This document shows, in pieces, positions 6,083 through 59,900 of a DNA stretch of 64,000 nucleotides. How positions within the stretch are numbered: position 1 is the first letter of the stretch; the number at the start of each line of letters is the position of its first letter. The DNA is from Eledone cirrhosa. Taxonomy: Eukaryota. Both the position numbers and the translations under genes were made by a program. The DNA lies in NCBI GenBank assembly GCA_964016885.1, contig OZ024742.1, forward strand, positions 213,528,001 through 213,592,000, written 5' to 3'. Under the pieces are notes generated by a model. That model saw nothing but the letters and a program-made list of their open reading frames with translations, did no database searches and was not told the origin of the DNA.

Positions 6083-6181
<99 letters not shown>

Positions 6182-6643
6182 TAAACGGAATAGAAAATGC
6201 TGACAAATTGTTCACAGTTGAAAAATGGTTTAATTAGGAATAAAAGAGTATTAGTAATTGTATGGGTTAGTATTCAGTTGTGGTTTTAAGTTTTTAAGTT
6301 TTTACCGGTTGCGCATTTCTAAATGCTTTTCAAAAATAAGTTTGAGATAGAGTGTCCGTGCTGTTTGCTCTGATCTGATTAGTTTTGGGAATTCTACCTG
6401 TTTTTATGTTAAAAAAGTGGCTCCAGCGTTATTTTTGTGTTGCAAAAATGCTTGTGGTCAAAACAATTTTGATTGGTCGGTAGAGGTCATGTGGATAAAA
6501 AATTGGTTTTGCGCCAAGATTGAGAAATGACTCTTTCACAACAAATATATGTGTGTGTGTGTGTGTGTGTGTAGTAGTAGTAGTAAGGTGTTCGATGCTG
6601 CGACAATGGCCAGCAGCGATGTGTGTCAAATGGCTATTAAGAT

Positions 6644-6722
<79 letters not shown>

Positions 6723-6759
6723 GCAGAGTAATTCGATGGTCAGTAAGAATGTGTCTGAA

Positions 6760-7471
6760 AGCAATGGGGGGTATTTTAGCATGTCAAAAGATATTTGCCC
6801 TAAAACTCAGTACCCAGGACCTTAGACACCCTAAAGTAAATCAACCAAAACTAAAAGCTCTTCCATACATCTCCACACACAACCCCCTCAACAATGAGGC
6901 CTTTGACACCATCCTCCAGAACATCCCTGTATTGAAAAAGGACCATAGAATGAACCAAATTCTAAGAACACACGATATCATAAAGAGCAAAAGACAATCC
7001 AAGTCAATGAAAAACATCTTAACACATGCCAAAGTACTGCCAACCACAACAACGAAACCCACAGTAAAAAAATGCGATAGACCCAACTGTGGCATTTGCA
7101 TCAACCTAATAGAGGGTTCGGAATTCTATTTCAAAGATGGACAACGTTTTATAGTAAAACACAATTTCACATGTGCATCGGAAAATCTAATATATGTATT
7201 AACTTGTTCAGGTTGTCGAGAACAATACATAGGCCAGACCAAAAACAGCCCCCGCCAACGCATGACTGTCCATAGATCCCAAATTAAAATACGGGAATAC
7301 AGGAAAATACCACTGAGTGAACACATTGATACCTGTGCCGCCCAAAATCATCCCAGCTTCAGAATCTTTCCCCTCTACAAATTTAAAGATAATGCCACCC
7401 ACACCCAGCGCATCAGCAAGGAATCTTACTTCATTAACAAATACGGACCCCGTCTAAACACTTCTCCCTAA
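6760..7471 (+). CDS. PLE linker + GIY-YIG endonuclease (C-terminal part; RT absent)
   Basis: LPYISTHNP; Cys linker CDRPNCGIC; NLIYVLTCSGCREQYIGQT; RMTVH, EH, R...E..FI..P.LN. The 5' end is fused to (TG)n, so probably not expressed. Confidence 0.85.
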
Positions 7472-7865
7472 GACGAACCCACAACATACACACGTCAACA
7501 TACATACCTACATCAGCACACATCTCTACCCACATATAAACACAATGACACACGTAAACACACATGCTCTATGGTGCAATACAAAAAAATATATGTGCAT
7601 ATATATGTATGTATATATGTATATATATATATATATGTAGTGAATATATGTATGTGTATATATATATAGTGAATATCATTTCACACCTTTTATTGTTAAG
7701 ATTTTTGATGTTCTATTAAGAGAACCGATTTTACTGAAAAAATCGAATAATGTACACCATTTTACCAGGGGAAAAAAAATACTGGTCCACCCACCCACAC
7801 ACACACACACACACATATATATACACAAACACATACACACGCGTGCATCAACATACAAAGAGACT

Positions 7866-7938
<73 letters not shown>

Positions 7939-8013
7939 ACTTATCTTAATAGCCATTTGACACACATCGCTGCTGGCCATTGTCGCAGCATCGAACACCT
8001 TACTACTACTACT

Positions 8014-8076
<63 letters not shown>

Positions 8077-8393
8077 TATTTGTTGTGAAAGAGTCATTTC
8101 TCAATCTTAGCGCAAAACCAATTTTTTATCCACATGACCTCTACCGACCAATCAAAATTGTTTTGACCAAGAATTTTTGCTGGAGCCACTTTTTTAACAT
8201 AAAAACAGTCTTGGCGCAAAATCAACTTTTTACATTCACATGACCTCTACCGACCAATCAAAATTGTTTTGACCACAAGCATTTTTGCAACACAAAAATA
8301 ACGCTGGAGCCACTTTTTTAACATAAAAACAGGTAGAATTCCCAAAACTAATCAGATCAGAGCAAACAGCACGGACACTCTATCTCAAAATTA

Positions 8394-8430
8394 TTTTTGA
8401 AAAGCATTTAGAAATGCGCAACCGGTAAAA
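8394..8430 (+). ncRNA. Variant hammerhead in the Neptune-like pLTR (other copies 6301-6336 -, 38506-38542 -, 38686-38722 +)
   Basis: TTT-TTGAAAA-GCATTT-ag-AAATGC-GCAAC-CG-GTA^AAA; U3/A8 core, GAAA changed to GCAA, weak stem I. Confidence 0.55.
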
Positions 8431-8587
8431 ACTTAAAAACTTAAAACCACAACTGAATACTAACCCATACAATTACTAATACTCTTTTATTCCTAATTAA
8501 ACCATTTTTCAACTGTGAACAATTTGTCAGCATTTTCTATTCCGTTTACCAATATATAATAACTTGTGTGTTACACCTCTATTCTTT

Positions 8588-8653
<66 letters not shown>

Positions 8654-9203: not shown

Positions 9204-9535
9204 GGGTGTGGGTGTTTGTGACTGTGTTTATGTTTATGAATTTGACAAAATACCAGTGGTTAATAAATAAAAAAAAACAGGCGTTCGTTCAAAAAGTTAT
9301 ACTGTACATCGTTGAATTAATAAATAACACTGTGGAACAAGTATCGAGCTCGATATGGTCGACTAAACCAGTAAAATAATATATATATATATATATAAGT
9401 AGAAGTGGTATTTAATTTGTTGGAAGTCCGACAAATATAAATGTTTATAACTGATTTAGAGCACTAAACAGTTTACTGGAGTAAATATTCAATGATATTA
9501 AATAAATGGAAACTATATTTATAAAACCATATTTA

Positions 9536-9596
9536 TTTTATTATATATATTTCAAGGGCAACCAAGACAACATTGGTACGCTTTCATCAGATAAAA
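9536..9596 (-). ncRNA. Hammerhead ribozyme (mirror of 12211-12271)
   Basis: Reverse complement of the 12211 motif. Confidence 0.8.
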
Positions 9597-10634
9597 TACA
9601 AAGTTTGTTTTATAAATAGAGATATACCCATGAAAATCATACCTTATCAGTTGGAAATTCACTGGATAGTGGAAATATATTAGGAATTATTCAAACTTAT
9701 GTGTGAATATGCAAATGAATATGTAAATAATTGAAAAACAACCGTTTATTTAAATGACACTGGAAAAACAGAGAGAAAAGAGAGAGAGAGTAAAAATATT
9801 ACGAGAGAGATAGAGAGAAGAAATTAACAAGAGGATGAATAAAACTCATATAACGTTAATTTGGGTGAATATATTCAATGGTACGTGTATTTACGATTAA
9901 TTAGTTGTTAAAATTCTTTACTAATATAATATTTACTGTTCTAAGTAGATAGAAAAATAAATAAATAAATAAATACATAAATAAATAAATAAATAAATAG
10001 ATGGATAAGTGGATAAATAGATAAATAAATGAATAGATGGGTATTTCGTGTTATAGATAATTGCTTTATTGAGTTATGAGGGTTATTGGTTTTGTATTTA
10101 ATGTAAGTAAATATTAAGTTAAATTAAATTAAGTTAACTGAGTTAATAAGAATATTTATATTTATACATTTTAAAATGAGAAGATACGGAAAAAACTCCA
10201 GTTTTGTTTATTTATTCGTTAGTATGAGACTATTTTGTCAAAATAATTATAAATGTTAAAGATATATTTAGCAAGATTTAGTTAGTGTTTATAAATCTAA
10301 TAAAAGATATTGAAAAAATATTAAAAATTCGGGAAAATTAAAAAAAAAAAATTTATAAGAGATAAGTAATTTAAAAAAAAAGTAATTTTTAAAAATAGAT
10401 AAAAAATTAAAGAAATAAAAAATAAAGAATTAAAAATTATTAAGATTAAAATTACAATTAAAATTAAAAAATTAGAATTATATATGTATATATTTTAAGA
10501 AACTTTAATAAGTGAAATTATAGCAAATGTTATAGATATGATTTAGAGATATCAATATATTAAAACCAAGTGGATAAGATTGTTATGGAAATAAGTAGAA
10601 ATATTATAAGTGTAATTATAATTTATATATAGTT

Positions 10635-10990
10635 CTAAACGTTGAATTCAGGCGATGTCATACAAGAACTAAATAAATTCGTCCTTATATTAATAGAGTT
10701 CTTACATTTAAGTATGAAAAACATTTCCTCAAAACACAATTTGCAAAATCTAGATAAAGCTGTATTTCCGTATGCGGGTGCTCTCGAAACTATTCCCCAA
10801 GTTAAAGAATAGTCCATATTCTTGCATTTTAAGTTCCATATCAGGTTTGAAAGAGAAGTTTAAAATGTTTTATCAAATCTTTGGAAAGAGCATTTGTGAT
10901 TATTCCAGCGACTTTTAAATTCTGTAGAAGTTGCACCTACATAGTTAAATATATTATCACTGGTTTTGACTGTACATTTATGGGAAATAA
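10635..10990 (-). pseudogene. PLE GIY-YIG endonuclease fragment (CxxC...CRH type, Naiad/Nematis-like)
   Basis: YVGATSTEFKSRWNNHKCSF ... LTWGIVSRAPAY ... CKLCFEE ... NIRTNLFSSC; the mirror arm on + at 11000-11150 reads SSCRH. Confidence 0.8.
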
Positions 10991-12210
10991 TTTCATAAGC
11001 ACCTGCATACCAAAACACAGCTTTATCTAGATTTTGCAAATTGTGTGTTGAGGAAATTTTTTTCATACTTAAATGTACGAACTCTATTAATATAAGGACG
11101 AATTTATTTAGTTCTTGTAGACATCGCCTGAATTCAACGTTTAGACCTATATATAAATTATAATTACACTTATAATATTTCTACATATTTCCATAACAAT
11201 ATTATCCACTTAGTTTTAATATATATTGATATCTCTAAATCATATCTATAACATTTGCTATAATTTCAATTCTTAAAGTTTCTTAAAATATATACATATA
11301 TAATTCTAATTTTTTGATTTTAATTTTAATTTTAATTTTAATTTTAATTTTAATCTTAATAATTTTTAATTCTTTATTTTTCATTTCTTTAATTATTTAT
11401 CTATTTTTAAAAATTACCTTTTTTTTAATAATTACTTATCTCTTATAAAAAATTTTTTTTAATTTTCCCGAATTTTTAATATTTTTTAAATATCTTTTAT
11501 TAGATTTATAAATACTAAATAATTCTGGCTAAATATATGTTTAACATTTATAATTATTTTGAAAAATAGTCTCATACTAACGAATAAATAAACAAAACTG
11601 GAGTTTTTTCCGTATCTTCCCATTTTAAAATATATAAATATAAATATTCTTATTAACTCAGTTAACTTAATTTAATTTAACTTAATATTTACTCCCATTA
11701 AATACAAAACCAATATCCCTCATAACTCATTAAAACAATTATCTATAACACGATATACCCATCTATTCATTTATTTATCTATTTATCCATTTATCCATTT
11801 ATTTATTTATCTATTTATTTATGTTTTTATTTATTTATTTATTTTTCTATCTGCTCTTCTATCTATTTATTTTTCTATCTACTTATAACAGTTATATTAG
11901 TAAAGAAATTTAACAACTAATTAATCGTAAATACACGTACCATTGAATATATTCACCCAAATTAACGTTATATGAGTTTTATTCATCCTCTTGTTAATTT
12001 CTTCTCTCTATCTCTCTCGTAATATTTTTCTCTCTCTCTTTCTCCAGTGTCATTTAAATAAACGGTTGTTTTTCAATAATTTACATATTCATTTGCATAT
12101 TCACACATAAGTTTGAATAATCCCTAGTATATTTCCACTATCCAGTGAATTACCAACCGATAAGGTATGATTTTCATGGGCATGTCTCTATTTATAAAAC
12201 AAACTTTGTA

Positions 12211-12271
12211 TTTTATCTGATGAAAGCGTACCAATGTTGTCTTGGTTGCCCTTGAAATATATATAATAAAA
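12211..12271 (+). ncRNA. Minimal type-I hammerhead ribozyme
   Basis: TTTTAT-CTGATGA-AAGcGtACCAA..TTGGTtgCcCTT-GAAAT-ATAT-ATA^ATAAAA. Confidence 0.82.
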
Positions 12272-12316
12272 TAAATATGGTTTTATAAATATAGTTTCCA
12301 TTTATTTAATATCATC

Positions 12317-12373
<57 letters not shown>

Positions 12374-25842: not shown

Positions 25843-25900
<58 letters not shown>

Positions 25901-25965
25901 CGTAAAATAAGAAAAAATTTTTTTTAAATTTTAAAAAAAAATTAACTTGCTTACTTAAATTTTCA

Positions 25966-26045
25966 CTCCAACTAATTAGTTTCTGCAATGGGATAAAGAC
26001 AGTTACGTAATGAACCGTTGAGAATTTCATTGCGTCATCAGGGAG
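25966..26045 (-). ncRNA. Hammerhead ribozyme
   Basis: Reverse complement of 26969-27048. Confidence 0.85.
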
Positions 26046-26523
26046 GTCATTCTCAGCCGAGTTTCCAGGCGATGCGCGGACACTGGCGACTCATATAAAA
26101 ATAATAATAATTCGGTAAATGGAACAGCTATCGAGGACTGGATTCCAGCTACTGAAAATTCTCACTGCCACTGATCATATGGCCGATTCTAAAGAATCAA
26201 TCACGTGACACAGAGGCTAGTCAGTAGGAATGGGGTGGTAAGATGACAAGCGCCTACTAACACCCCCCAAAAAATTTTTTAGAAGTGGTTTTGGCAGGTT
26301 TGCTCGACAAATCAGTGATTTGGAGATAAATATAGATAATTTAATATATCTACTAACATAAGCGCACAGATGTACGCCAATGCCAGCAAATACACAGGTT
26401 ATGTCATAGTACCTAGGTGGTTCGATGCAGGAGAATGCAGAACAATAATATAAAAGACGTAAAATAAGAAAAATTTTTTTTTAAATTTAAAAAAAAAAAT
26501 TAACTTGCTTACTTAAATTTTCA

Positions 26524-26603
26524 CTCCAACTAATTAGTTTCTGCAATGGGATAAAGACAGTTACGTAATGAACCGTTGAGAATTTCATTGCGTCATCAGG
26601 GAG
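26524..26603 (-). ncRNA. Hammerhead ribozyme
   Basis: Second tandem copy of the same motif. Confidence 0.85.
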
Positions 26604-26968
26604 GTCATTCTCAGCCGAGTCTATTTGCTGGCATTGGCGTACATCTGTGCGCTTATGTTAGTAGATATATTAAATTATCTATATTTATCTCCAAATCACT
26701 GATTTGTCGAGCAAACCTGCCAAAACCACTTCTAAAAATTTTTTTTGGGGGTGTTAGTAGGCGCTTGTCATCTTACCACCCCATTCCTACTGACTAGCCT
26801 CTGTGTCACGTGATTGATTCTTTAGAATCGGCCATATGATCAGTGGCAGTGAGAATTTTCAGTAGCTGGAATCCAGTCCTCGATAGCTGTTCCATTTACC
26901 GAATTATTATTATTTTTATATGAGTCGCCAGTGTCCGCGCATCGCCTGGAGACTCGGCTGAGAATGAC

Positions 26969-27048
26969 CTCCCTGATGACGCAATGAAATTCTCAACGGT
27001 TCATTACCTAACTGTCTTTATCCCATTGCAGAAACTAATTAGTTGGAG
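26969..27048 (+). ncRNA. Hammerhead ribozyme with a 51-nt stem II region
   Basis: CTCC-CTGATGA-cGCAATG..CATTGCa-GAAAC-TAATTA-GTT^GGAG. Confidence 0.85.
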
Positions 27049-27234
27049 TGAAAATTTAAGTAAGCAAGTTAATTTTTTTTTTTAAATTTAAAAAAAATTT
27101 TTCTTATTTTACGTCTTTTATATTATTGTTCTGCATTCTCCTGCATCGAACCACCTAGGTACTATGACATAACCTGTGTATTTGCTGGCATTGGCGTACA
27201 TCTGTGCGCTTATGTTAGTAGATATATTAAATTA

Positions 27235-27267
<33 letters not shown>

Positions 27268-27271
<4 letters not shown>

Positions 27272-28274: not shown

Positions 28275-29250
28275 TGCTTCTATAGTATGCCTCCAGTGGT
28301 ATTGCGGCGACACTGTTACATGGCGGTCGTACGGCACACTCCGCATTCAAATTGCCTTTGGACATTGCAAACAAGGAGAATCCTACATGTAGAATAGATC
28401 GTGGCGACCCTAAAGCACATCTTCTTTCTGAGTGCTGCCTGATCATATGGGACGAGGCTACCATGTGTTACAAGGCGGCCTTTGAGGCTCTGGATCGAAC
28501 TCTCAAGGACTTGCGTCGGAACTCACGCGTCATGGGTGGAGCGACAGTACTGCTGGCTGGCGATTTCCGACAGACTCTTCATGTTATCACTAGAGGCACT
28601 AGAGCTGACGAAGTGAACGCATGCATCAAGTCGTTCTACGTATGGCAGTATCTCCACAAACTACATCTGACTACCAACATGAGAGTACATCTGCATGGTG
28701 ATGCAGACTCCATCGATTTCTCAAAACATCTACTGAAAGCTGGTAATGGAACTACACCTGGAGTGGATGAAGAGCATATCCGTTTGCCTTTTGGGAACTT
28801 TGTGTCAAACATTGATGAATTAATGTCATCTGTATTTCCAGATCTTGAATCACCATTCCATGATCACACCTGGCTGAAAGGGAGAGCTATTTTGGCACCA
28901 CACAATGCCACTGTTGACGTGATGAACCAAAAACTACTCGATCAGATTCCCGAAAATGAATCTCCTTCAAGTCGATTGACACCAATAAAATGTGACGACG
29001 CCGTCACCTACCCAACTGAAATCCTCAACAGTCAACTACCTCCATGACTTCCTCCTCATGATCTGAAACTGAATGTTGGTGTGCCAGTTATGCTGCTGAG
29101 AAACCTGGATGCACCAGAACTATGCAACGGAACGCGTTTAATCATCAAAAAAATAAGGAGCCAAATTCTGGACACAACCATTTTGAGCGGACCCGCTGCT
29201 GGCGTGACCAGGTTAATTACCCTTATGAGACTTAGTCCCTCTGATATCCC
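28275..29250 (+). pseudogene. Helitron PIF1-family helicase fragment
   Basis: ASSGIAATLLHGGRTAHSAFKLP, IIWDEATM, LLAGDFRQ, LTTNMR, RAILAP, PP*LPPH (in-frame stop at 29045), PVMLLRNLDAPELCNGTRL. Confidence 0.9.
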
Positions 29251-30042
29251 CTATGTTTATATGTGTTTGTTGTTATTGTGCTTGTGTATGTATTTATTTA
29301 TCTATTTATTTATTTCAGTACTATACGAACATGCCAGACAACAACACGACGGTAACATAGACAACATAGAAATTAGAATAATATCTAAACATAGAAATGA
29401 CCCAGCAGATAGGCAAATCAGAGAGGCCAGTGAAATAGAACACAGAAGGCCAAGGCTAAACAGAAAAAATGAATGGAATAACAACAACACCCAAACAAAC
29501 AACACTGACCTAAGAGAAGTATAAATAAATAAATAAATAAATAAATAAATAGATAAATAAATAAATACATACACAAGCACTATATCAACAAACACATATA
29601 AACACACACTAGTAAAGATAGAATACATTAACCAATACACAGTCACCCAAACACGAACACACATCAAACAAAACACTATACACACGCGCAAACGCATGCG
29701 CAAAGAAGACAAAAAAATAAACAAATAAATAAATATATAAACAGACTAAATAAAGATGGCGTAGACATACGATGCAACGGGAGGAAACAATAGCACCACT
29801 GACGATGTTGCAGATGTGCAACGAAAGAAGTTTGATTGACTATATATATATGTGTTTGTGTCATTATTATATCTGTATTGTTGACCGTTGGTCAGTCAAT
29901 GGTAACATTGAGGACCGAATAAATTAAATTAACCGATATAAAAGACACAGAAGCGAAAAGCGAAAACCAACCAAACAGTGAGTGTGTTCTGTTATTAATT
30001 CTGGCAATATTATACAAATATGACCCTCCCCAAGTATAACAA
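29251..30042 (+). mobile_element. PLE 3' end: GIY-YIG C-terminus + pLTR + HHR, with a short 5' inversion
   Basis: LYEHARQQH...DRQIREASEI...PRLNRKNEW at ~29320-29478; ~29255-29315 is inverted relative to ~29540-29600; HHR CTGACGA-tGTTGCA-gatg-TGCAAC-GAAAG at 29799. Confidence 0.75.
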
Positions 30043-50087: not shown

Positions 50088-52034
50088 ATGTTAAACGCAG
50101 CGAACGAAAATAGTGGTGGGGGGACAGCGGTAAGAGTTGTAAGCTCGCACGCTTTAGTCCCCCCTTCCTTCCCAACTAACGTCATAGAGAAGGAAGGAAA
50201 AATTAAAATAAAAACAGATGAATCTGCGGAAAAAAAAAAAAAATGACGAAAACACAAATCTGGACTTGGATTCCAACAACGAAAAAAAAAATTTGAAAAA
50301 TTGCATGACAATACTAATAACACAAACAAAGACACAACAAACACAAAAATAACATTTGAAAATAACACCATATCAGAAAACAAAGCAGACGACAAGATTT
50401 CATTTGCACAGAAAACAAAGAAATCTTTGACTTATATAGCGGAAAACATTTCAGATGTGGTACGAAGGATCACGGACGCCAAACAATACATAAGTGAAGG
50501 AGAGAATGGTATTTTATCGGTAAAAATGCCTCAAGAATTCACGAAAGACATTGAAAGCCGAACGGTCAAGTTTCGGACCATCAACAACAGTACAAAAAAA
50601 CCTGAACAGCCTTCTCAAGCAGATATCAAAACAGTACTCACAGAAGTACTTAATGAAACCACTTTCATAAGAAAAGACAGACTGTATGGAAGCCTAGCAA
50701 TTATCATGAAGAACGAATCGGCGGCAAAAAAATGTGCTTTGTCACCGATTCGTTCGAAAAATTTCACCTTTTATCCATCTTATATGGGGAAAAGAACTCA
50801 ACGCATATGGCTGGATGCAATGATGCCAGATGTGGACTACTGCTGGCTCATAGCTGGCTTCATCGATCCAGTGAATGACAACGTGATTTCCATTGGGAAA
50901 ACCACAGGCAATGCGTTCAGTGGAACAGGTATAGAGCTGGTAGTACAAATGAAGCCTGAACGCATCGCCCAAATACCCGACAGAATCCTATTAGAGGACC
51001 ACGGATATATAAACATTAGCGTGGAGGGGAGAAGGCCGTCTTGCCATATCTGTGCAGGCAGAGGGCACCTGAAGGCCGCTTGTCCCCAACTCAACAAAAA
51101 GAAAACCCTGCTACCAACACCAGCTCCACCACCACCACCACAACAGATAAACAAACAACAAAACTCAGTCCCACCCAACCCGTCCCTCAGTAAAACCACA
51201 ACACCACCACAACACAAACAGTCACAACACATTACCCCAAAACAAAATACAGGCCCACCCAACCTCTCACTCAATAAAACAACACAACCACCGCAGACAC
51301 AACACACAACACAGTCTAACATAGTGACATCCATCTCTCCCACAAAGAAAACCAACACGGAAACATTACCAGCAAACATACCTCTTCCCTCCAACACTGA
51401 AGATAACCCAACGAATTCGGAGGAAGAAACGGAGTCCTTCAGACAGATTAAAAGGAAAAAAAGAAAACATGTGCAAAACACACAAGGACAAACAACCCCC
51501 ACCCAAATCTCAACACAATCCAACAAAACAGAAAACACCCCTCCAGCAACAAACAAAACCAAACCTGCCCCTCCCCTCTTCGAAACACTCACACCATCGG
51601 AAAAAAAGACATTACACTATACTTACATCAACAGAAACAATAATAAATTAAATGAGCTCATATACAATAATCCTTCGGTACAAACCGAAGGTGTAAACTT
51701 TGTTTCGTCAGAAAACTACCCACATTTAAAACTAATAAAGATCCCAATGAACCTCTACCAAAAACTAAAAAAGGATTTTAAGGAGGACGTAGGACCACCC
51801 TCTGTCAAACCCATAAACCGCGTCCTACTAAAAAGCTTTCCCCCTCCCCTTCCCCTCCCCAACACAACTCCAAACACCCCAACCCCACCACACACTGACG
51901 ACCCCACACCACCACAAGACACCCTTCACCCAACACCCCCGACCCCATGGAAGTCGTGCAACCCGAACCCCGGGAAGCGGAAAGGTAGGTCTCTACACTC
52001 TCCTTTGGCTCTGCCGCCCACATGGATGTGTTAA
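50088..52034 (+). CDS. Tx1 ORF1 (gag-like; CCHC knuckle; Pro/Thr/Gln-rich tail), frameshifted in the poly-A at ~50230-50243
   Basis: CHICAGRGHLKAAC knuckle; upstream ATG at 50088 (MLNAANENSG...) is out of frame with the 577-aa ORF at the A-run. Confidence 0.8.
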
Positions 52035-55000
52035 GAGTAGGATGTTTGAATGCACGTGGCCTGGGCTCAACTTGGAAGCAAGCAAAGCTTCTAAATGACC
52101 TCAGGTCATGTAGTATAAATGTAATGGTTATCTGTGAGACTCGAATCAGCGTCGTGCGGCAGCTGGCCCCCACCTTCGATGACTTTGAGGTGCATGCATC
52201 TCTCTGTCAACCTGGAGGTGGGGGTGGGGTTGTCGTACTGCTGCAAAAACACCTGGGTCTTGCCGTACAGGTTGTGCACTCGGACCCGGAGGGTCGTTTG
52301 TTGGTGCTAGACGTTGGCAGTAGTGAAAGTGCGGCCTTGAGACTGGTCGCCGTCTACTCCCCTTTCGGAGCTGAACGGCCCGACTTCTTCCAGCGTTTGG
52401 AGACTTTTCTGGGAACGTCGCGTTCCCTGCTTCTAGCGGGGGATTGGAATGACATCCTGGATGCACGTTGGGACTATGCAGGAGCATGTCCTAATAGAGG
52501 GGGGTGTAACAGCCTCAAGGGGTTACACGACCGTTTTAACTTGGTCGATAGATATCGACTAGATTTTCCAACTGTGCCTACCTGGACTTGGAGAAACCAC
52601 AGTGGTCAATCTAGATCGTACTTAGATAGATTCTTAGTTAGAAGTAAGGATAGGAACATATTAAGCTGTCCAGAAATGCGCACGGTTGGCTACACGGATC
52701 ACAAATTAGTGACCTGCGTGGTCAATCTCGAGAAAACACATAGACAGGGTCCCGGTTACTGGAAACTTAATTTGTCTTTACCGGCAAAAGAGACTTACAG
52801 AAACCGGATTAGCAGATTAGTTAAGGAGAGGTTGACGGGTGCAATCGTCAACAACCGATGGTGGGCATCTCTCAAAAGAGAGATTAGAACAGAATCAATA
52901 AGTTATAGCAAGATGTTAGCTGCCGATAGGAATAGGAACGAGAAAGAATTAACAGGTAAATTAGAAGAGGCAATCAAGAGCGAAGATGTGGCCAGAGTGC
53001 TGGCATCGAGGACGGCCTTGAACCAGTTTTTCGATGCAAAGCACGAAGGCTGCGTCATTCGAAGTAAAATACGTGCTCTAGGTAATGAGGGGGCCAAAGC
53101 CGTTGGATGGGCCCGCGTGACAGAAGCTAAGAGTGGAAATCGATCCACCATCCGGTCGTTGCAAGACGAAGATGGACGGGTGATCCGGGAGCCTAAGCAG
53201 ATGTGCGAGGCCTTTCAAAGGCACTTTGCCCGATTGTTCGGGGGAGGCGAGGGTCCGGGCGGGGACGTGAATTTCGGTCCATACCTCGACGGCCTGCCGC
53301 GTCTCTCGAACGAAGAGGCAGAGTCCTGCGAGGGACCAATCTCGGCTGATGAGATCGGAGATGCGCTGAGCCAATGCAGCAGACGCAAATCTCCAGGTCT
53401 CGATGGTATACCTTACGAACTTTATTTAGCAATGCCGGTCTTCTTCTCCGAACTCCTCGAAGCGGTCTACTGCAATTGGCAGCAGAACGGGAGAATTCCT
53501 TGTTCTGTAGCCAAGGGCGTAGTCACGCTGGTGAGGAAGGACGAGAACAAGGGGGATAGTATAAATAATGTTCGGCCCATAACCCTGCTAAACACAGAGT
53601 TAAAGATTTTGGCCAAGGTATTAGCAAAGAGGTTGGCGCTTGTCGGGGGTGGCCTGGTGGGAGATGCGCAGACATGTGCTATCCCATCCAGGTCCATTCA
53701 CGATAACCTCCACCTCATGCGATACATCATAGAGAGGGTTGGCAACAAACCCGGCTTCGGTGGGGCCCTGATCAACTTGGATCAGTCTAAGGCCTTCGAT
53801 AGGGTCGACCATGGTTACCTGGATGCGGTGCTAGCGGCGGCTGGGTTCGGTCCTGTTTTCAGAGGCTGGATCACTGCCCTACATAGCAACCACATCTGTT
53901 CTAGTATCAAGGTGAACGGCTACCTTTCGAAGCCGTTCGAAATCACACGATCCATTCGACAGGGGTGCCCTCTCTCCTCCCTTCTGTACGTATTGACTCT
54001 CGAGCCTTTACTGAGGAAGTTGGAGTTGTTGCAGGGTATCCCCCTGGAACCAGGATTGAGCAAAACGGTGTCGGCCTACGCCGATGACGTAACAGTAATG
54101 GTATCAACCGACTCGGAGATCGAGGCGATCGGTACCTTACTGGAGGAGTACGAAAGGTTGTCAGGAGCGAAACTGAACCGGGAAAAATCCATCGGGCTGC
54201 AACTCGGAACGTGGAGAGGCAGACCGATGCCTCCTGACGGTGTCGTCGGACACTGGACGGAGGGCCCGGTAAAGTTGCTTGGGGTCTGGTTTGGACCGGA
54301 CCTCCAGGTGGAAAAGAACTGGAACGAGGTTACGAACAAGGTGTTTGCACTAACCCAGAAATGGGCCAAGTGTAAGCTGTCCCTAAAAGGCCGGGCGGAG
54401 GTGGCGAACATTTACATAGCGTCCGTCACTTACTACCGCCTGACTGTCGTGCCTTGCCCTAAGGAAACACTCACCACCACGGAACGCATGCTCTTCCAAT
54501 TTCTTTGGAAGAAGCGTCCTCCTATGGTGAGAAGATCCATCTGCTGCCAACAACCTTCGAAAGGAGGGCTGGGGATGCCGTGGTTGATGATGCGTAGGCA
54601 CGCATTAAGGCTACGGCACCTACAGGTATTCCTCACTGGTCAACCGGTGTGGGCTCCGTTCGTGAAACGAGCCTTTCAGAGACTCGTCTCGCTCACCGAG
54701 CTACAGTCCTGGGTCAAGCAAAGATCCGGAAAACTGGGAGACTGGCACACTGAGTGTGCTCAGGCGCTCAGGGCTCTCTGGCAAGCGGGCCAGGCCATCG
54801 GTGGAGAATCCACCTCATCATTCTATAGAGGGCTGGTGGCTAGCAGGGGCGATGACACCCTTGGAGAGTCGCTGGACATGGAAGAAGACGAACTGGCCAG
54901 CCTGTTCGGTAGGACTTTCGGCCCAGGACCAATGGACAACTTCCAGAAGTCACTGGCCTGGCAGTGCTACCGGGGGGCTCTACGCGTTTGAGAGAGGCTC

Positions 55001-56917: not shown

Positions 56918-59900
56918 TATCTTCTTGGTTGTCCATCGTAAACGATGATGACATCTTTATTTTAGTTCCCGTCTGCCGTGCGCACGAAGGTGGCTGTGGC
57001 GGCCGATCCTGTCCTGAGCATGGGACTCGAGTTGTTTTGGGACGATTCCAGTGTTGTTGATACTGGACTTCACGCAGTCTTTGAAACTCTTGAGAGGCCT
57101 GCCCTGCTTTCGTTTCCTCGAACAGAGTTCCCCATACATCAGTTGCTTCGGAAGCCTGTGATCGTCCATCCGGATATCTCTCACCCATCGAAGTCGGCTC
57201 TTCAGTATCATAGCTTCGACACTGGTTGTCTCAGCCATGTCAAGAACTTCGAGGTTGCAGACCTTGTCCTGCCATTTGATGTTCATGATTGACCGCAGGC
57301 TGCGCATGTGGAACCGCTCCAGCTGCTTCAGGTGCCTTCTGTACAGGGTCCATGTCTCACATCCGTAGAGGAGGCTGGTGAGAACAACGGTCCTGTACAC
57401 ATTCAGCTTGATGGACTGCCTGATGTTGCGCTGGTTCAGGACGCGTGTCCTCAGGCGGCCAAGGGCTTGGCTGGCCTTGCAGATCCTGGCATTTATCTCC
57501 TTGTCGACGCTTCCATCGCTGCTGATGACACTGCCGAGATACTTGAAGTCGTGCACCGTCTTTAGTTGTGTGCCTCCGATGGAGATGGTAGGAGGGTGGG
57601 CGACGGAGGCAGGTGCAGGCTGGAACAGGACCTCAGTCTTGCCAAGGCTAATTGTGAAACCGAAGAGACAGGAGGCCTCCGCTAACTTGTTGACGATGAC
57701 TTGGAGGTCAGACTCCCTGTGGGCCATGAGGGCACAGTCGTCAGCAAAAAGTGCCTCCAGGACGATCCTCTGCACGGTCCTTGTCTTGGCCGTCAGGCGC
57801 CGCAGGTCAAACAGGGAGCCGTCCAGTCTGTATCGCAGATACACTCCGTGCTCGAGGTCCCTGACGGCATGATTGAGCACGCAGGGGAAGAACAGGTTGA
57901 AGAGGACGGGAGCCAGCACGCATCCTTGCTTGACGCCGTTGGTGATTCCGAACGGCCCCGATGCCTCTCCGCCCGAGCGCACCTGCCCGGTCATGTCGTC
58001 ATGGAATTGCCGTATCAGGTTCACGAACTTTGTCGGGCATCCAAACTTCGACAGGATCGACCAGAGGGCCTCCCTGTTGACACTATCGAAGGCCTTCGTC
58101 AAGTCTATAAAGACGGCAAAGAGGTCCATGTTCTGCTCGACACACTTCTCCTGCACCTGGCGTACAGAGAAGTTCATGTAGATCGTGCTGCGGTTTGGGC
58201 GGAACCTACATCGAGCCTCAGGCAGGTTGTCCTCCGAGATGTTGGCATGACCCGAGCCAGGTCCTTCCCAGCGATGGATAGGGGAGAAATGCCCCGATAG
58301 TTGCCACAGTCAGTTTTTCTGCCTTTGTTCATAAAAGCGAGACAACTGTGGCATCCCTGAAGTCTTTGGGCACCTCTTTTTCCTCCCTTATGCTGACGAG
58401 GAGGGTGTAGAAGGCCCCCGGGGCAGCTGGACCGGCCGACTTGTAGATCTCGGCAGGAATCCCATCCTTCCCAGGGGCCTTTCTTGAGCTGGTCTGGTTG
58501 ATTGCCTTCGTGACTTCATCCAACGTTGATGGGGGGTCGACTCTGCTTACTACGGGCTTCTGTGGGACCTGGTCGAGGGCGGCAGGGTCGACAGTGGAGG
58601 GCCTGTTGAGCAGGTTGCCTGTTGAGCATCGAGTTGATGCTGCTCTTCTCCTTCAGCAGGGTCGAGCCGTCAGCAGACAGCAGCGGTGTGGTGACAGGCT
58701 TGGGGGATCCGTAGACGTCTCCGATGGCGCTGAAGAACATCTTGGAGTTCTTTGTGTCAGCGTATCTCTCGATTTCTTTGTCCTACATTCTTTGTCCAGC
58801 ATTCTGCCTAGCGCTGCTTGGGTCTGCCTCTGGAGGTGCTTGAACTGGTCGCACTTCGAGGTGGAGGAGCTGTCATTCTGCCACTCGTCCAGGAGTTGTC
58901 TGATGCGCTCATCGTTTTCATCCAACCAGTCCTGGTGGATTCTCTTCCTCAGCCTGATGGTTCCCTTGGCTGACTCTGTCACCAGCGACCTGAACTGGTC
59001 CCATTGTTGACTTGGGTCCGGTCAGTGGTCCATGGGCATTCAGCCGGCCGTCCAAGTCTTCCACGAACTCATCACGATGCTCTGGCTGCTTGAGTTGTGT
59101 GACGTCGAAAGCTGGCCTACAGACTTTCGGAATCTTGCGATGCGTCGGGGTGATGTGCGGTGACTGGATGGTCCTGACAAGGCGATGGTCGGTCCAACAC
59201 TCTGCACCACACATGGCCCTGGTGATTCTGACGTCACGGATGTCCCTCCTGCGGCATATGGCAACGTCAATCAGATGACACTGTTTGGATCTGCGGTGCA
59301 TCCATGTCGTCTTGAACTTGTCTGCTTGGTGGAACAGTGTGCTGGTGATGGTGAGGTCGTTCTCGGCGCAGAAACCCAACAGTACGAGGCCGTTAGAGTT
59401 CAGCTTCCCTGTGCCGTGAGGTCCCAGCACGCCTCTCCAGTTTCTGCTGTCAGACCCGACTCTTGCGTTGAAGTCCCCCAGTAGGATAAGTTTATCGCTT
59501 GGGAGACGCCCTTCACGAGTGCGTTGAGTTCCCCGTAGAAAGCGTCTTTTTCTTAATCGTTGCTGGTGAGAGTGGGGGCTTACGCGCTGATGACTGTGAC
59601 ATGCCGAGATGGGTCGAGAGGGAAGCGGAGCTTCATCAGCCACTCACTCACAGGAGTTGGGAGGTCTCGTAGCTGCTTGCAGAGCGAAGTCCTGATGGCC
59701 AGGCCTACCCCGTGGGTTCTGTCCTTGTCCTTTGCATTGCCCTTCCAGAAGAAGGTGTAGCCTCCTTTCGGTTCTGCTACTGATCCTTCTTCGGTGAGTC
59801 TGGTCTCGCTGAGGACGGCTATGTTGATCCGGTAGCGAGCTAATTCCCTTGCTATGAGAGCATTTCTCCTCTCTGGCCTCAAGGAGGTTTACCTAACCAC

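Follow-up and report, generated by a model that had tools for sequence, protein, structure and literature searches.

A young two-armed insertion of a 558-nt hammerhead-motif repeat in Eledone cirrhosa, probably primed at both ends of a (TA)n tract by borrowed Penelope-like machinery

How can a short repeat that encodes no protein come to lie within one insertion in more than one unit length on each of the two strands? The question is raised by a locus of Eledone cirrhosa in a window of 64,000 nucleotides (the whole stretch of DNA that was analysed; contig OZ024742.1), where, by alignment, a 558-nt unit occupies the locus twice over, as two opposed arms between (TA)n tracts. A first-pass annotation of this DNA had answered it with rolling reverse transcription of a circular RNA, giving circularly permuted copies, and a snap-back. 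The answer that we favour, with modest confidence, is a young insertion of a hammerhead-motif repeat, for which the borrowed reverse transcriptase (RT)-endonuclease of a Penelope-like element (PLE) primed both (TA)n ends on one RNA, probably a ligated circle. The features of the locus are listed below in window coordinates. Monomer positions are counted from the first base after the predicted cleavage, which is position 1.

25845-25895: left (TA)n target tract (sequence)
25891-26622, minus strand: arm A, 5'-truncated and tail-less, 1.31 units, from monomer position ~464/466 to site A (TATA at 76-79)
25966-26045, minus strand: type I hammerhead motif, downstream copy, predicted cleavage after 25970 (scan start -26041)
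25970-26527, minus strand: 558-nt monomer, predicted product of double cleavage (unit spacing and motif scan; fold z = -5.5)
26524-26603, minus strand: type I hammerhead motif, upstream copy, predicted cleavage after 26528 (scan start -26599)
26620-26622: head-to-head junction of both 5'-truncated arms, 1-2 nt overlap (sequence and alignment)
26622-27241, plus strand: arm B, 5'-truncated and tail-bearing, 1.13 units, from monomer position 136 to site B (TATA at 194-197)
26969-27048, plus strand: type I hammerhead motif, the single copy of arm B, predicted cleavage after 27044 (scan start +26973)
27119-27241, plus strand: 'tail' of 118 nt between site A and site B (TATA words at monomer positions 76 and 194; census of 3' ends)
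27176-27227, plus strand: long hairpin just 5' of site B, a candidate RT-binding or template-boundary element (fold against shuffles)
27237-27269: right (TA)n target tract (sequence)

In monomer coordinates, the minus arm (26620 to 25891) runs from 466 to 558, from 1 to 558 and from 1 to 80, and the plus arm (26622 to 27241) from 136 to 558 and from 1 to 197; the ~1.3 and ~1.1 units of non-coding monomer first reported for the two strands are confirmed as 1.31 and 1.13. The unit has a GC content of 37.5% and folds below its shuffles (40 dinucleotide shuffles). As had also been claimed, (TA)n flanks both ends and there is no ORF: on either strand of the unit, no ATG-started frame exceeds 33 aa and no stop-free frame exceeds 87 aa. 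The unit lacks an RT and GIY-YIG ORF and hence is no autonomous PLE. That the insertion is young follows from the near identity of its arms, with only 2 differences at 429 compared non-homopolymer positions. The central junction contains no (TA)n and is known from the assembly alone; among the contigs listed (4 records, all from one study), the unit itself is covered and none spans the locus. Dozens of independent loci are built alike, so an assembly chimera is unlikely.

The hammerhead motif lies in the sense strand of each arm only, and the motif scan found none in the opposite polarity. The same scan bears out the earlier observation that the two motifs of the minus arm lie exactly 558 nt apart, with predicted cleavage at GUU^GGAG. 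The motif consists of CUGAUGA...GAAA, a helix I of 4-5 bp, a 6-bp helix II and a palindromic helix III; helix II has a long insert (38 nt), and an extra A before G12 gives a C.A mismatch at its base. Rfam returned no match at gathering thresholds and six weak ones at E<=10, none of them a ribozyme and all regarded as chance matches; the hammerhead is therefore called from the motif scan and covariation; other ribozyme classes were checked by Rfam alone. Common variants occur at 0 of 43 core and stem positions, compared with 60 of 386 elsewhere (p = 0.002). Among 10 representatives of related families, picked for diversity, the core columns are invariant except U7, and 5 of 14 helix pairs have changed on both sides, giving a covariation score reached by 0 of 500 shuffles, a control that is inflated by relatedness. 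As judged from these comparisons, the ribozyme is under selection, over ~30% divergence.

Two or more complete motifs are present in 36 of 216 sampled arms, the minus arm of this locus among them. Its transcript, which the first-pass annotation expected to excise one monomer, is predicted to contain two complete hammerheads and could indeed release 558 nt. Folding energies place the active fold of the 730-nt arm 5-10 kcal/mol above the arm's minimum. Minimal PLE hammerheads cleave poorly in vitro, as described in PMC4209133, and for Xenopus retrozyme dimers cleavage is described in one of nine cases and none in the other eight (10.64898/2026.07.22.740005). A second structured element, the hairpin before site B (monomer positions 133-184), is more stable than all of 200 shuffles (z = -4.4); across 9 variants 96% of its cells are paired, with two-sided change in only 2 of 22 pairs. 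For the poly(U)/poly(A) hairpin that precedes site A, stability does not exceed that of shuffled sequences (z = +0.7).

The family to which the unit belongs is large. A 28-nt word of the ribozyme has 4,256 exact matches in the 3.0-Gb assembly, and the junctions of site B and site A with (TA)n have 227 and 1,021, respectively; all reversed controls gave 0. With thousands of copies and a ribozyme motif under selection, the earlier identification as a retrozyme is supported in so far as the family is retrozyme-like. A similarity search with the unit gave 1,625 candidates, of which 40 were scored. In total, 165 loci were analysed, 33 found by overall similarity and the rest by two end-anchored pattern searches: the first 100 of the 227 site-B matches yielded 96 loci, and the first 53 of the 1,021 site-A matches yielded 48. 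Because the match lists are ordered by genome position, the end-anchored loci come from contigs C1-C4 only. Duplicate loci were removed by hand, and 129 homopolymer and end positions were masked for variant counts. Alignments below 83% identity were dropped before counting, by which related families are lost and some pairs with short diverged arms become singles.

Nearly all copies of the family adjoin (TA)n at both ends, and the median arm length is 424-461 nt. Related families with ~70% identity and slightly shorter units share both end sites and the layout (L098, L099, L105, L108, L195, L200, L215-L222). Longer arrays also occur. One array holds at least 5.4 units (L158), and another on contig C28 (G000:C28:45835402-45855924; L008-L030, L050) consists of at least 10 whole insertions ~3 kb apart, which have an identical 5' end and range from 1.5 to 5.5 units. 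Copies with the same 5' end and differing unit counts indicate that unit number changes by DNA recombination after insertion.

The 3' ends of the arms were counted in the 33 loci that had not been selected by their ends. Of 53 arms, 51 end at two TATA sites 118 nt apart, site B at 194 (30 arms) and site A at 76 (21 arms, one of which, in L039, has no (TA)n after its end), and two end elsewhere. Practically no arm ends at the other two TATA words, at 180 and 431; one possible stub at 180 is seen in L004. It is the 5' ends that vary: they are spread round the unit, with an excess at positions 1-60 (51 vs 28 expected) and a mild excess in bin 121-140 (15 vs 9.6 expected). In the loci analysed first, 5' ends seemed to pile up at 131-146, an effect attributed largely to the start of the query. 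The claim of free circular permutation therefore fails, since only the 5' ends vary; the alignment proposed at first pass as a check for random start points gave 3' ends fixed at two sites, which is half of what the first-pass annotation itself had named as refuting its reading.

Arms are also combined in a regular way. The 144 anchored loci contain 83 head-to-head pairs: 67 of type A+B, 2 of type B+B, none of type A+A, and 14 that are cut-off or complex. One-of-each pairing is thus found in 67 of 69 clean pairs (66 A+B pairs after dropping one duplicate), and many apparent single arms carry a short site-A stub opposite. Among junction types, overlaps of 1-9 nt between arms are the most frequent. 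In 23 of the 66 A+B pairs, this locus included, the arms are not nested either way; each arm here accordingly needed its own priming. The apparent 'permutations' are two fixed RT starts combined with random 5' truncation, and we consider two independent primings at fixed sites to be likely with good confidence. Classical twin priming without overlap, in which the B arm stops at site A, was rejected, as the 5' ends of B arms are spread round the unit. At three loci (L081 at 1501-2130, L155 and L159), a B arm stands head to head with a short foreign piece ending in (TA)n, which in L081 contains what is apparently the 3' half of another hammerhead; these may be rare two-RNA insertions.

Which machinery might have written such ends? 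That a PLE RT mobilised the unit, as proposed at first pass, fits the insertion footprint, and we hold it to be very probable that this retrozyme is mobilised by PLE machinery. The window itself contains a GIY-YIG fragment that belongs to a very young PLE family (18,350 candidates, the best 150 of them at 97-100%). The coding PLE has an ORF of 784 codons with RT, a CX4CxxC linker and GIY-YIG, and is Neptune/Nematis-like as judged by the description in PMC8557442. It was followed at 21 distinct loci; in all 11 where both ends are visible, a tail of ~40 nt is present at one end only. PLEs with a C-terminal endonuclease usually carry a hammerhead; a scan of the full-length copies of this coding PLE found none. 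An element without a detected hammerhead thus has the same one-tailed inverted layout, so this layout does not itself imply a circle.

A coding PLE carrying the unit as its pLTR, for which a search had been suggested, was looked for and not found. Compared with the DNA of the 784-codon PLE at 4 loci, the unit shows no match. RT matches occur in 10 of the 165 family loci, none found to be continuous with a unit, and a variant-motif pattern gave 9 matches, 8 of them in related non-coding units and none with an RT match. The search thus covered the 784-codon PLE, the 165 family loci and the 9 variant-motif loci, and was not exhaustive. At L107 (1505-2330), no (TA)n separates an A arm from the 3' end of a relative of the 784-codon PLE, to which it is joined in tandem; this single case is possibly a template switch pointing to the partner enzyme, and a deletion is also possible.

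The two arms of an insertion resemble copies of a shared template. Divergence is 1.27% within arms (339/26,691) and 1.28% across arms (199/15,529), compared with 4.65% between random loci (41,823/899,005). Common variants are concordant in 438 of 457 comparisons within arms (96%) and 294 of 306 across arms (96%), compared with 4,429 of 31,416 between loci (14%). As subfamilies may be active one at a time, such haplotype concordance alone is no proof of a single molecule. Young insertions contain identical units (e.g., 0/568, 0/510 and 0/492 differences). There are also 26 rare variants, in 23 loci, that are present in every covering copy, several of them in 3-4 copies spanning both arms; 333 rare variants are discordant, and 11 cases of partial sharing show later conversion or duplication, processes by which shared variants can arise as well. 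In 8 of 66 pairs both arms stop at the same position (within 5 nt), where 1.8 were expected (p = 0.0004), as would fit two RTs on one molecule; later loss of a spacer could do likewise.

Several ways of making such an insertion can be weighed against these observations. The snap-back, in which one rolling cDNA starts from a random point of a circle and is folded back into the inverted arm, could account for pairs in which one arm is contained in the other (43/66), and 8 junctions are symmetric, so a minority fold-back route may exist in the family. However, it does not predict 3' ends fixed at two sites and cannot explain 67 A+B pairs among 69 clean ones, and the non-nested arms in the remaining 23 pairs rule it out at this locus, where separate priming was needed; as the general explanation it is most improbable. 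Little more credible is an origin from two insertion events in one (TA)n tract, from recombination of a satellite at the DNA level, or from misassembly into a chimera. It is true that (TA)n tracts gather several independent elements (L082, L136), that whole insertions amplify in tandem, as in the C28 array, and that this locus has no spanning contig among those listed. But separate insertions would not account for a central junction without (TA)n, nor for arms that share a haplotype when neighbours in one tract do not, and strict A+B pairing recurs at dozens of dispersed loci, contrary to a chimera or rearrangement. A viroid-like RNA that replicates autonomously and is now and then reverse-transcribed into the genome would agree with the strong self-pairing (z = -5.5) and the ribozyme motif; yet the motif scan found the hammerhead in one polarity only, and the thousands of dispersed copies with PLE-type ends, like the gradual structure of the subfamilies, are in keeping with a genomic retroelement. 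We give this account hardly any credence.

The remaining choice is between a circular and a linear multimeric template, and here the comparison of copies inclines us, without great assurance, towards the circle. Rolling reverse transcription of a circle, as first proposed, fits slightly better, and linear multimers also fit. The predicted cleavage site is crossed by 159 of 218 arms, twice or more by 48 of them, and all 243 spans of the junction are without an indel there, so template jumping at this site is not favoured. A monomer could be regenerated from the 36 of 216 arms with two or more motifs, which also speaks for a circle. Run-off from cleaved linear monomers was rejected as the main route, as the 5' ends at the cleavage site (5, with 2.4 expected) are not in significant excess (p = 0.10). 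A linear RNA with non-overlapping priming would have to be longer than 2 units in 38 of 66 pairs, a length reached by 9 of 218 arms; with strand displacement, more than 2 units would be needed in only 6 of the 66. Every argument for a circle has a linear alternative. A two-ended PLE insertion from a linear, uncleaved or partly cleaved multimeric transcript of tandem donors, in which circles, if any, are no template, is possible but doubtful. It would agree with the identical layout of the coding PLE without a detected hammerhead, and donor arrays of at least 5 units exist: those of L158 (at least 5.4 units) and C28 (up to 5.5) could act as linear donors. Four arms (L106, L201, L028, L034) end at position 1-2 after 1.36-1.37 units, as a partly cleaved linear dimer would. 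The stopping rate doubles beyond one unit length (position-matched ratio 2.0), which speaks for a circle, but the change-point is broad, at ~425-750 nt, and finite templates or later unit loss could also explain this rise. Two of the 26 fully shared variants hit the ribozyme core (L045 at position 547, L120 at position 492), which counts against a circle, since one made by cleavage should not carry core changes. In L045, A is replaced by G in three copies distributed over both arms, which could reflect editing of the template RNA, or conversion. In vitro, an Anolis PLE used uncleaved RNA (PMC11167929). Against the linear template stand a ribozyme selected over ~30% divergence, identical units in young insertions and the lack of significant run-off at the cleavage site; moreover, truncation shortens every daughter, so a linear-only cycle would need long donors in each subfamily.

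With the circle as the preferred template, the insertion may be pictured as follows. A transcript through an arm with two motifs would cleave itself twice, probably as a double hammerhead formed through the palindromic helix III, and a host ligase would close the released monomer into a circle. The PLE protein, probably a dimer, would bind this RNA and cut both strands of the (TA)n tract. Of the two target 3' ends, one would then prime at site A and its partner 118 nt further downstream, at site B, both through 4-5 nt of TATA pairing; the two-site pattern itself is observed. Each cDNA extends variably, often beyond the cleavage site and beyond one unit, as seen in the arms, and the two cDNA 3' ends would finally be joined by a microhomology of a few nt and filled in, giving the order (TA)n, arm A reading outwards, arm B reading outwards, (TA)n. 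The most specific form of this proposal, with a dimeric Penelope-type RT on one ribozyme-made circle, always one A and one B start, and both cDNAs rolling past the unit with strand displacement, is put forward tentatively, and as a whole we lean slightly against it.

By its sequence features, the locus is an animal non-LTR retrozyme that bears the known Penelope footprint; class and layout are each already known. The retrozyme features found are a hammerhead in every unit, tandem units, two or more consecutive motifs, lack of coding capacity, GC below 50% and self-pairing. Animal non-LTR retrozymes, as described in PMC7229834 and 10.64898/2026.07.22.740005, are likewise non-coding, low-GC and self-paired, with a unit of a few hundred nt and one type I hammerhead, and occur as tandem copies with thousands of motifs per genome and PLEs alongside. 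Other traits of this class are self-cleaving transcripts, expression as linear and circular monomer RNA, and the lack of a PBS and PPT, with target-site duplications, when present, longer than 4 bp; inside (TA)n such duplications are unreadable. The unit of 558 nt lies above the 150-450 bp given in PMC7229834 and inside the 51-972 bp given in 10.64898/2026.07.22.740005. Most copies here differ in being short, two-armed and inverted, with fixed 3' ends, and none such appear in the descriptions of these two sources. The motif also differs: the canonical retrozyme motif has a 6-bp helix I and loop 1-loop 2 contacts, whereas the 4-5 bp helix I found here is nearer the minimal PLE type. Mussel and axolotl retrozymes are described as departing from the canonical motif as well (PMC7229834), and 24 of 57 Xenopus retrozyme families as having TE homology (10.64898/2026.07.22.740005). 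With the minimal PLE hammerheads described in PMC4209133, the motif shares a short helix I, a long helix II, an extra base after A9 and a palindromic helix III suited to double-hammerhead cleavage; it differs from them in the extra A before G12, the C.A at the base of helix II and the 38-nt insert. Opposite-strand pairs of hammerheads 100-700 bp apart were noted in PLEs in the same source.

The footprint has its closest parallels among PLEs. The EN+ PLEs Neptune and Naiad, as described in PMC8557442, share 5' truncation, partial tandems, an inverted 5'-truncated copy, a one-ended tail and a (TA)n target; in contrast to them, the unit has no RT/endonuclease ORF and its tail is 118 nt instead of 30-40 bp. 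In vitro, Anolis Poseidon PAc cut and extended both target strands, and two internal RT starts bounded its tail; according to PMC11167929 it also has a predicted dimer and an AT-rich target, both in common with the scheme proposed here, and its starts have no target homology and are used alike by both strands. The starts at our loci, in contrast, match TATA and are used one of each in 67 of 69 pairs. In LINE-1 twin priming, both target strands prime on one RNA, and a 5' inversion joined by microhomology results. Two-strand priming and the microhomology-joined inversion are thus common to both systems. The present family differs in that its second priming site is fixed and that, in unit coordinates, its arms overlap, at this locus by more than one whole unit.

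A search of mostly open-access literature, older Penelope reviews aside, yielded no account of retrozymes that insert by priming at two fixed sites, one of each, and no published work on twin priming in the PLE mechanism was found, as judged by title and start of abstract. Circle-templated reverse transcription by PLEs is the proposed retrozyme cycle (PMC7229834, PMC4209133, 10.64898/2026.07.22.740005), and PMC8557442 counts among the open questions how tandem and inverted PLE copies arise with a tail on one side. Both questions could readily be tested on this unit: it is short, encodes no protein and has a high copy number with young copies, and its two priming sites are mapped and follow a one-of-each rule. 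If the proposal is correct, a circular RNA could be copied at the two ends of a DNA break into stretches longer than its unit; such rolling would directly support the proposed circle-templated cycle of retrozymes; and the one-sided tail of PLEs would be explained as asymmetric two-site priming.

The window contains further elements. At 6178-8592 lies a 5'-truncated copy of the coding PLE (GIY-YIG at 6641-7471) with an inverted arm, (TA)n on both sides and one tail of ~40 nt. An AT-rich PLE-like insertion at 9398-12318 has an inverted pair of hammerheads (-9590 and +12217), GIY-YIG-like remnants and a one-ended tail of ~95 nt as judged by eye. Minimal type I hammerhead motifs of other families are present at +5984, -13104, +34983 and +47826, of which those at -13104 and +34983 look mutually related. 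Two long ORFs at 50247-54991 (595 and 1000 codons; endonuclease and RT) form an apparently intact LINE, other RT fragments lie at 1317-2827 and 56957-59643, and PIF1 helicase fragments of Helitron-like type are found at 28286-29524.
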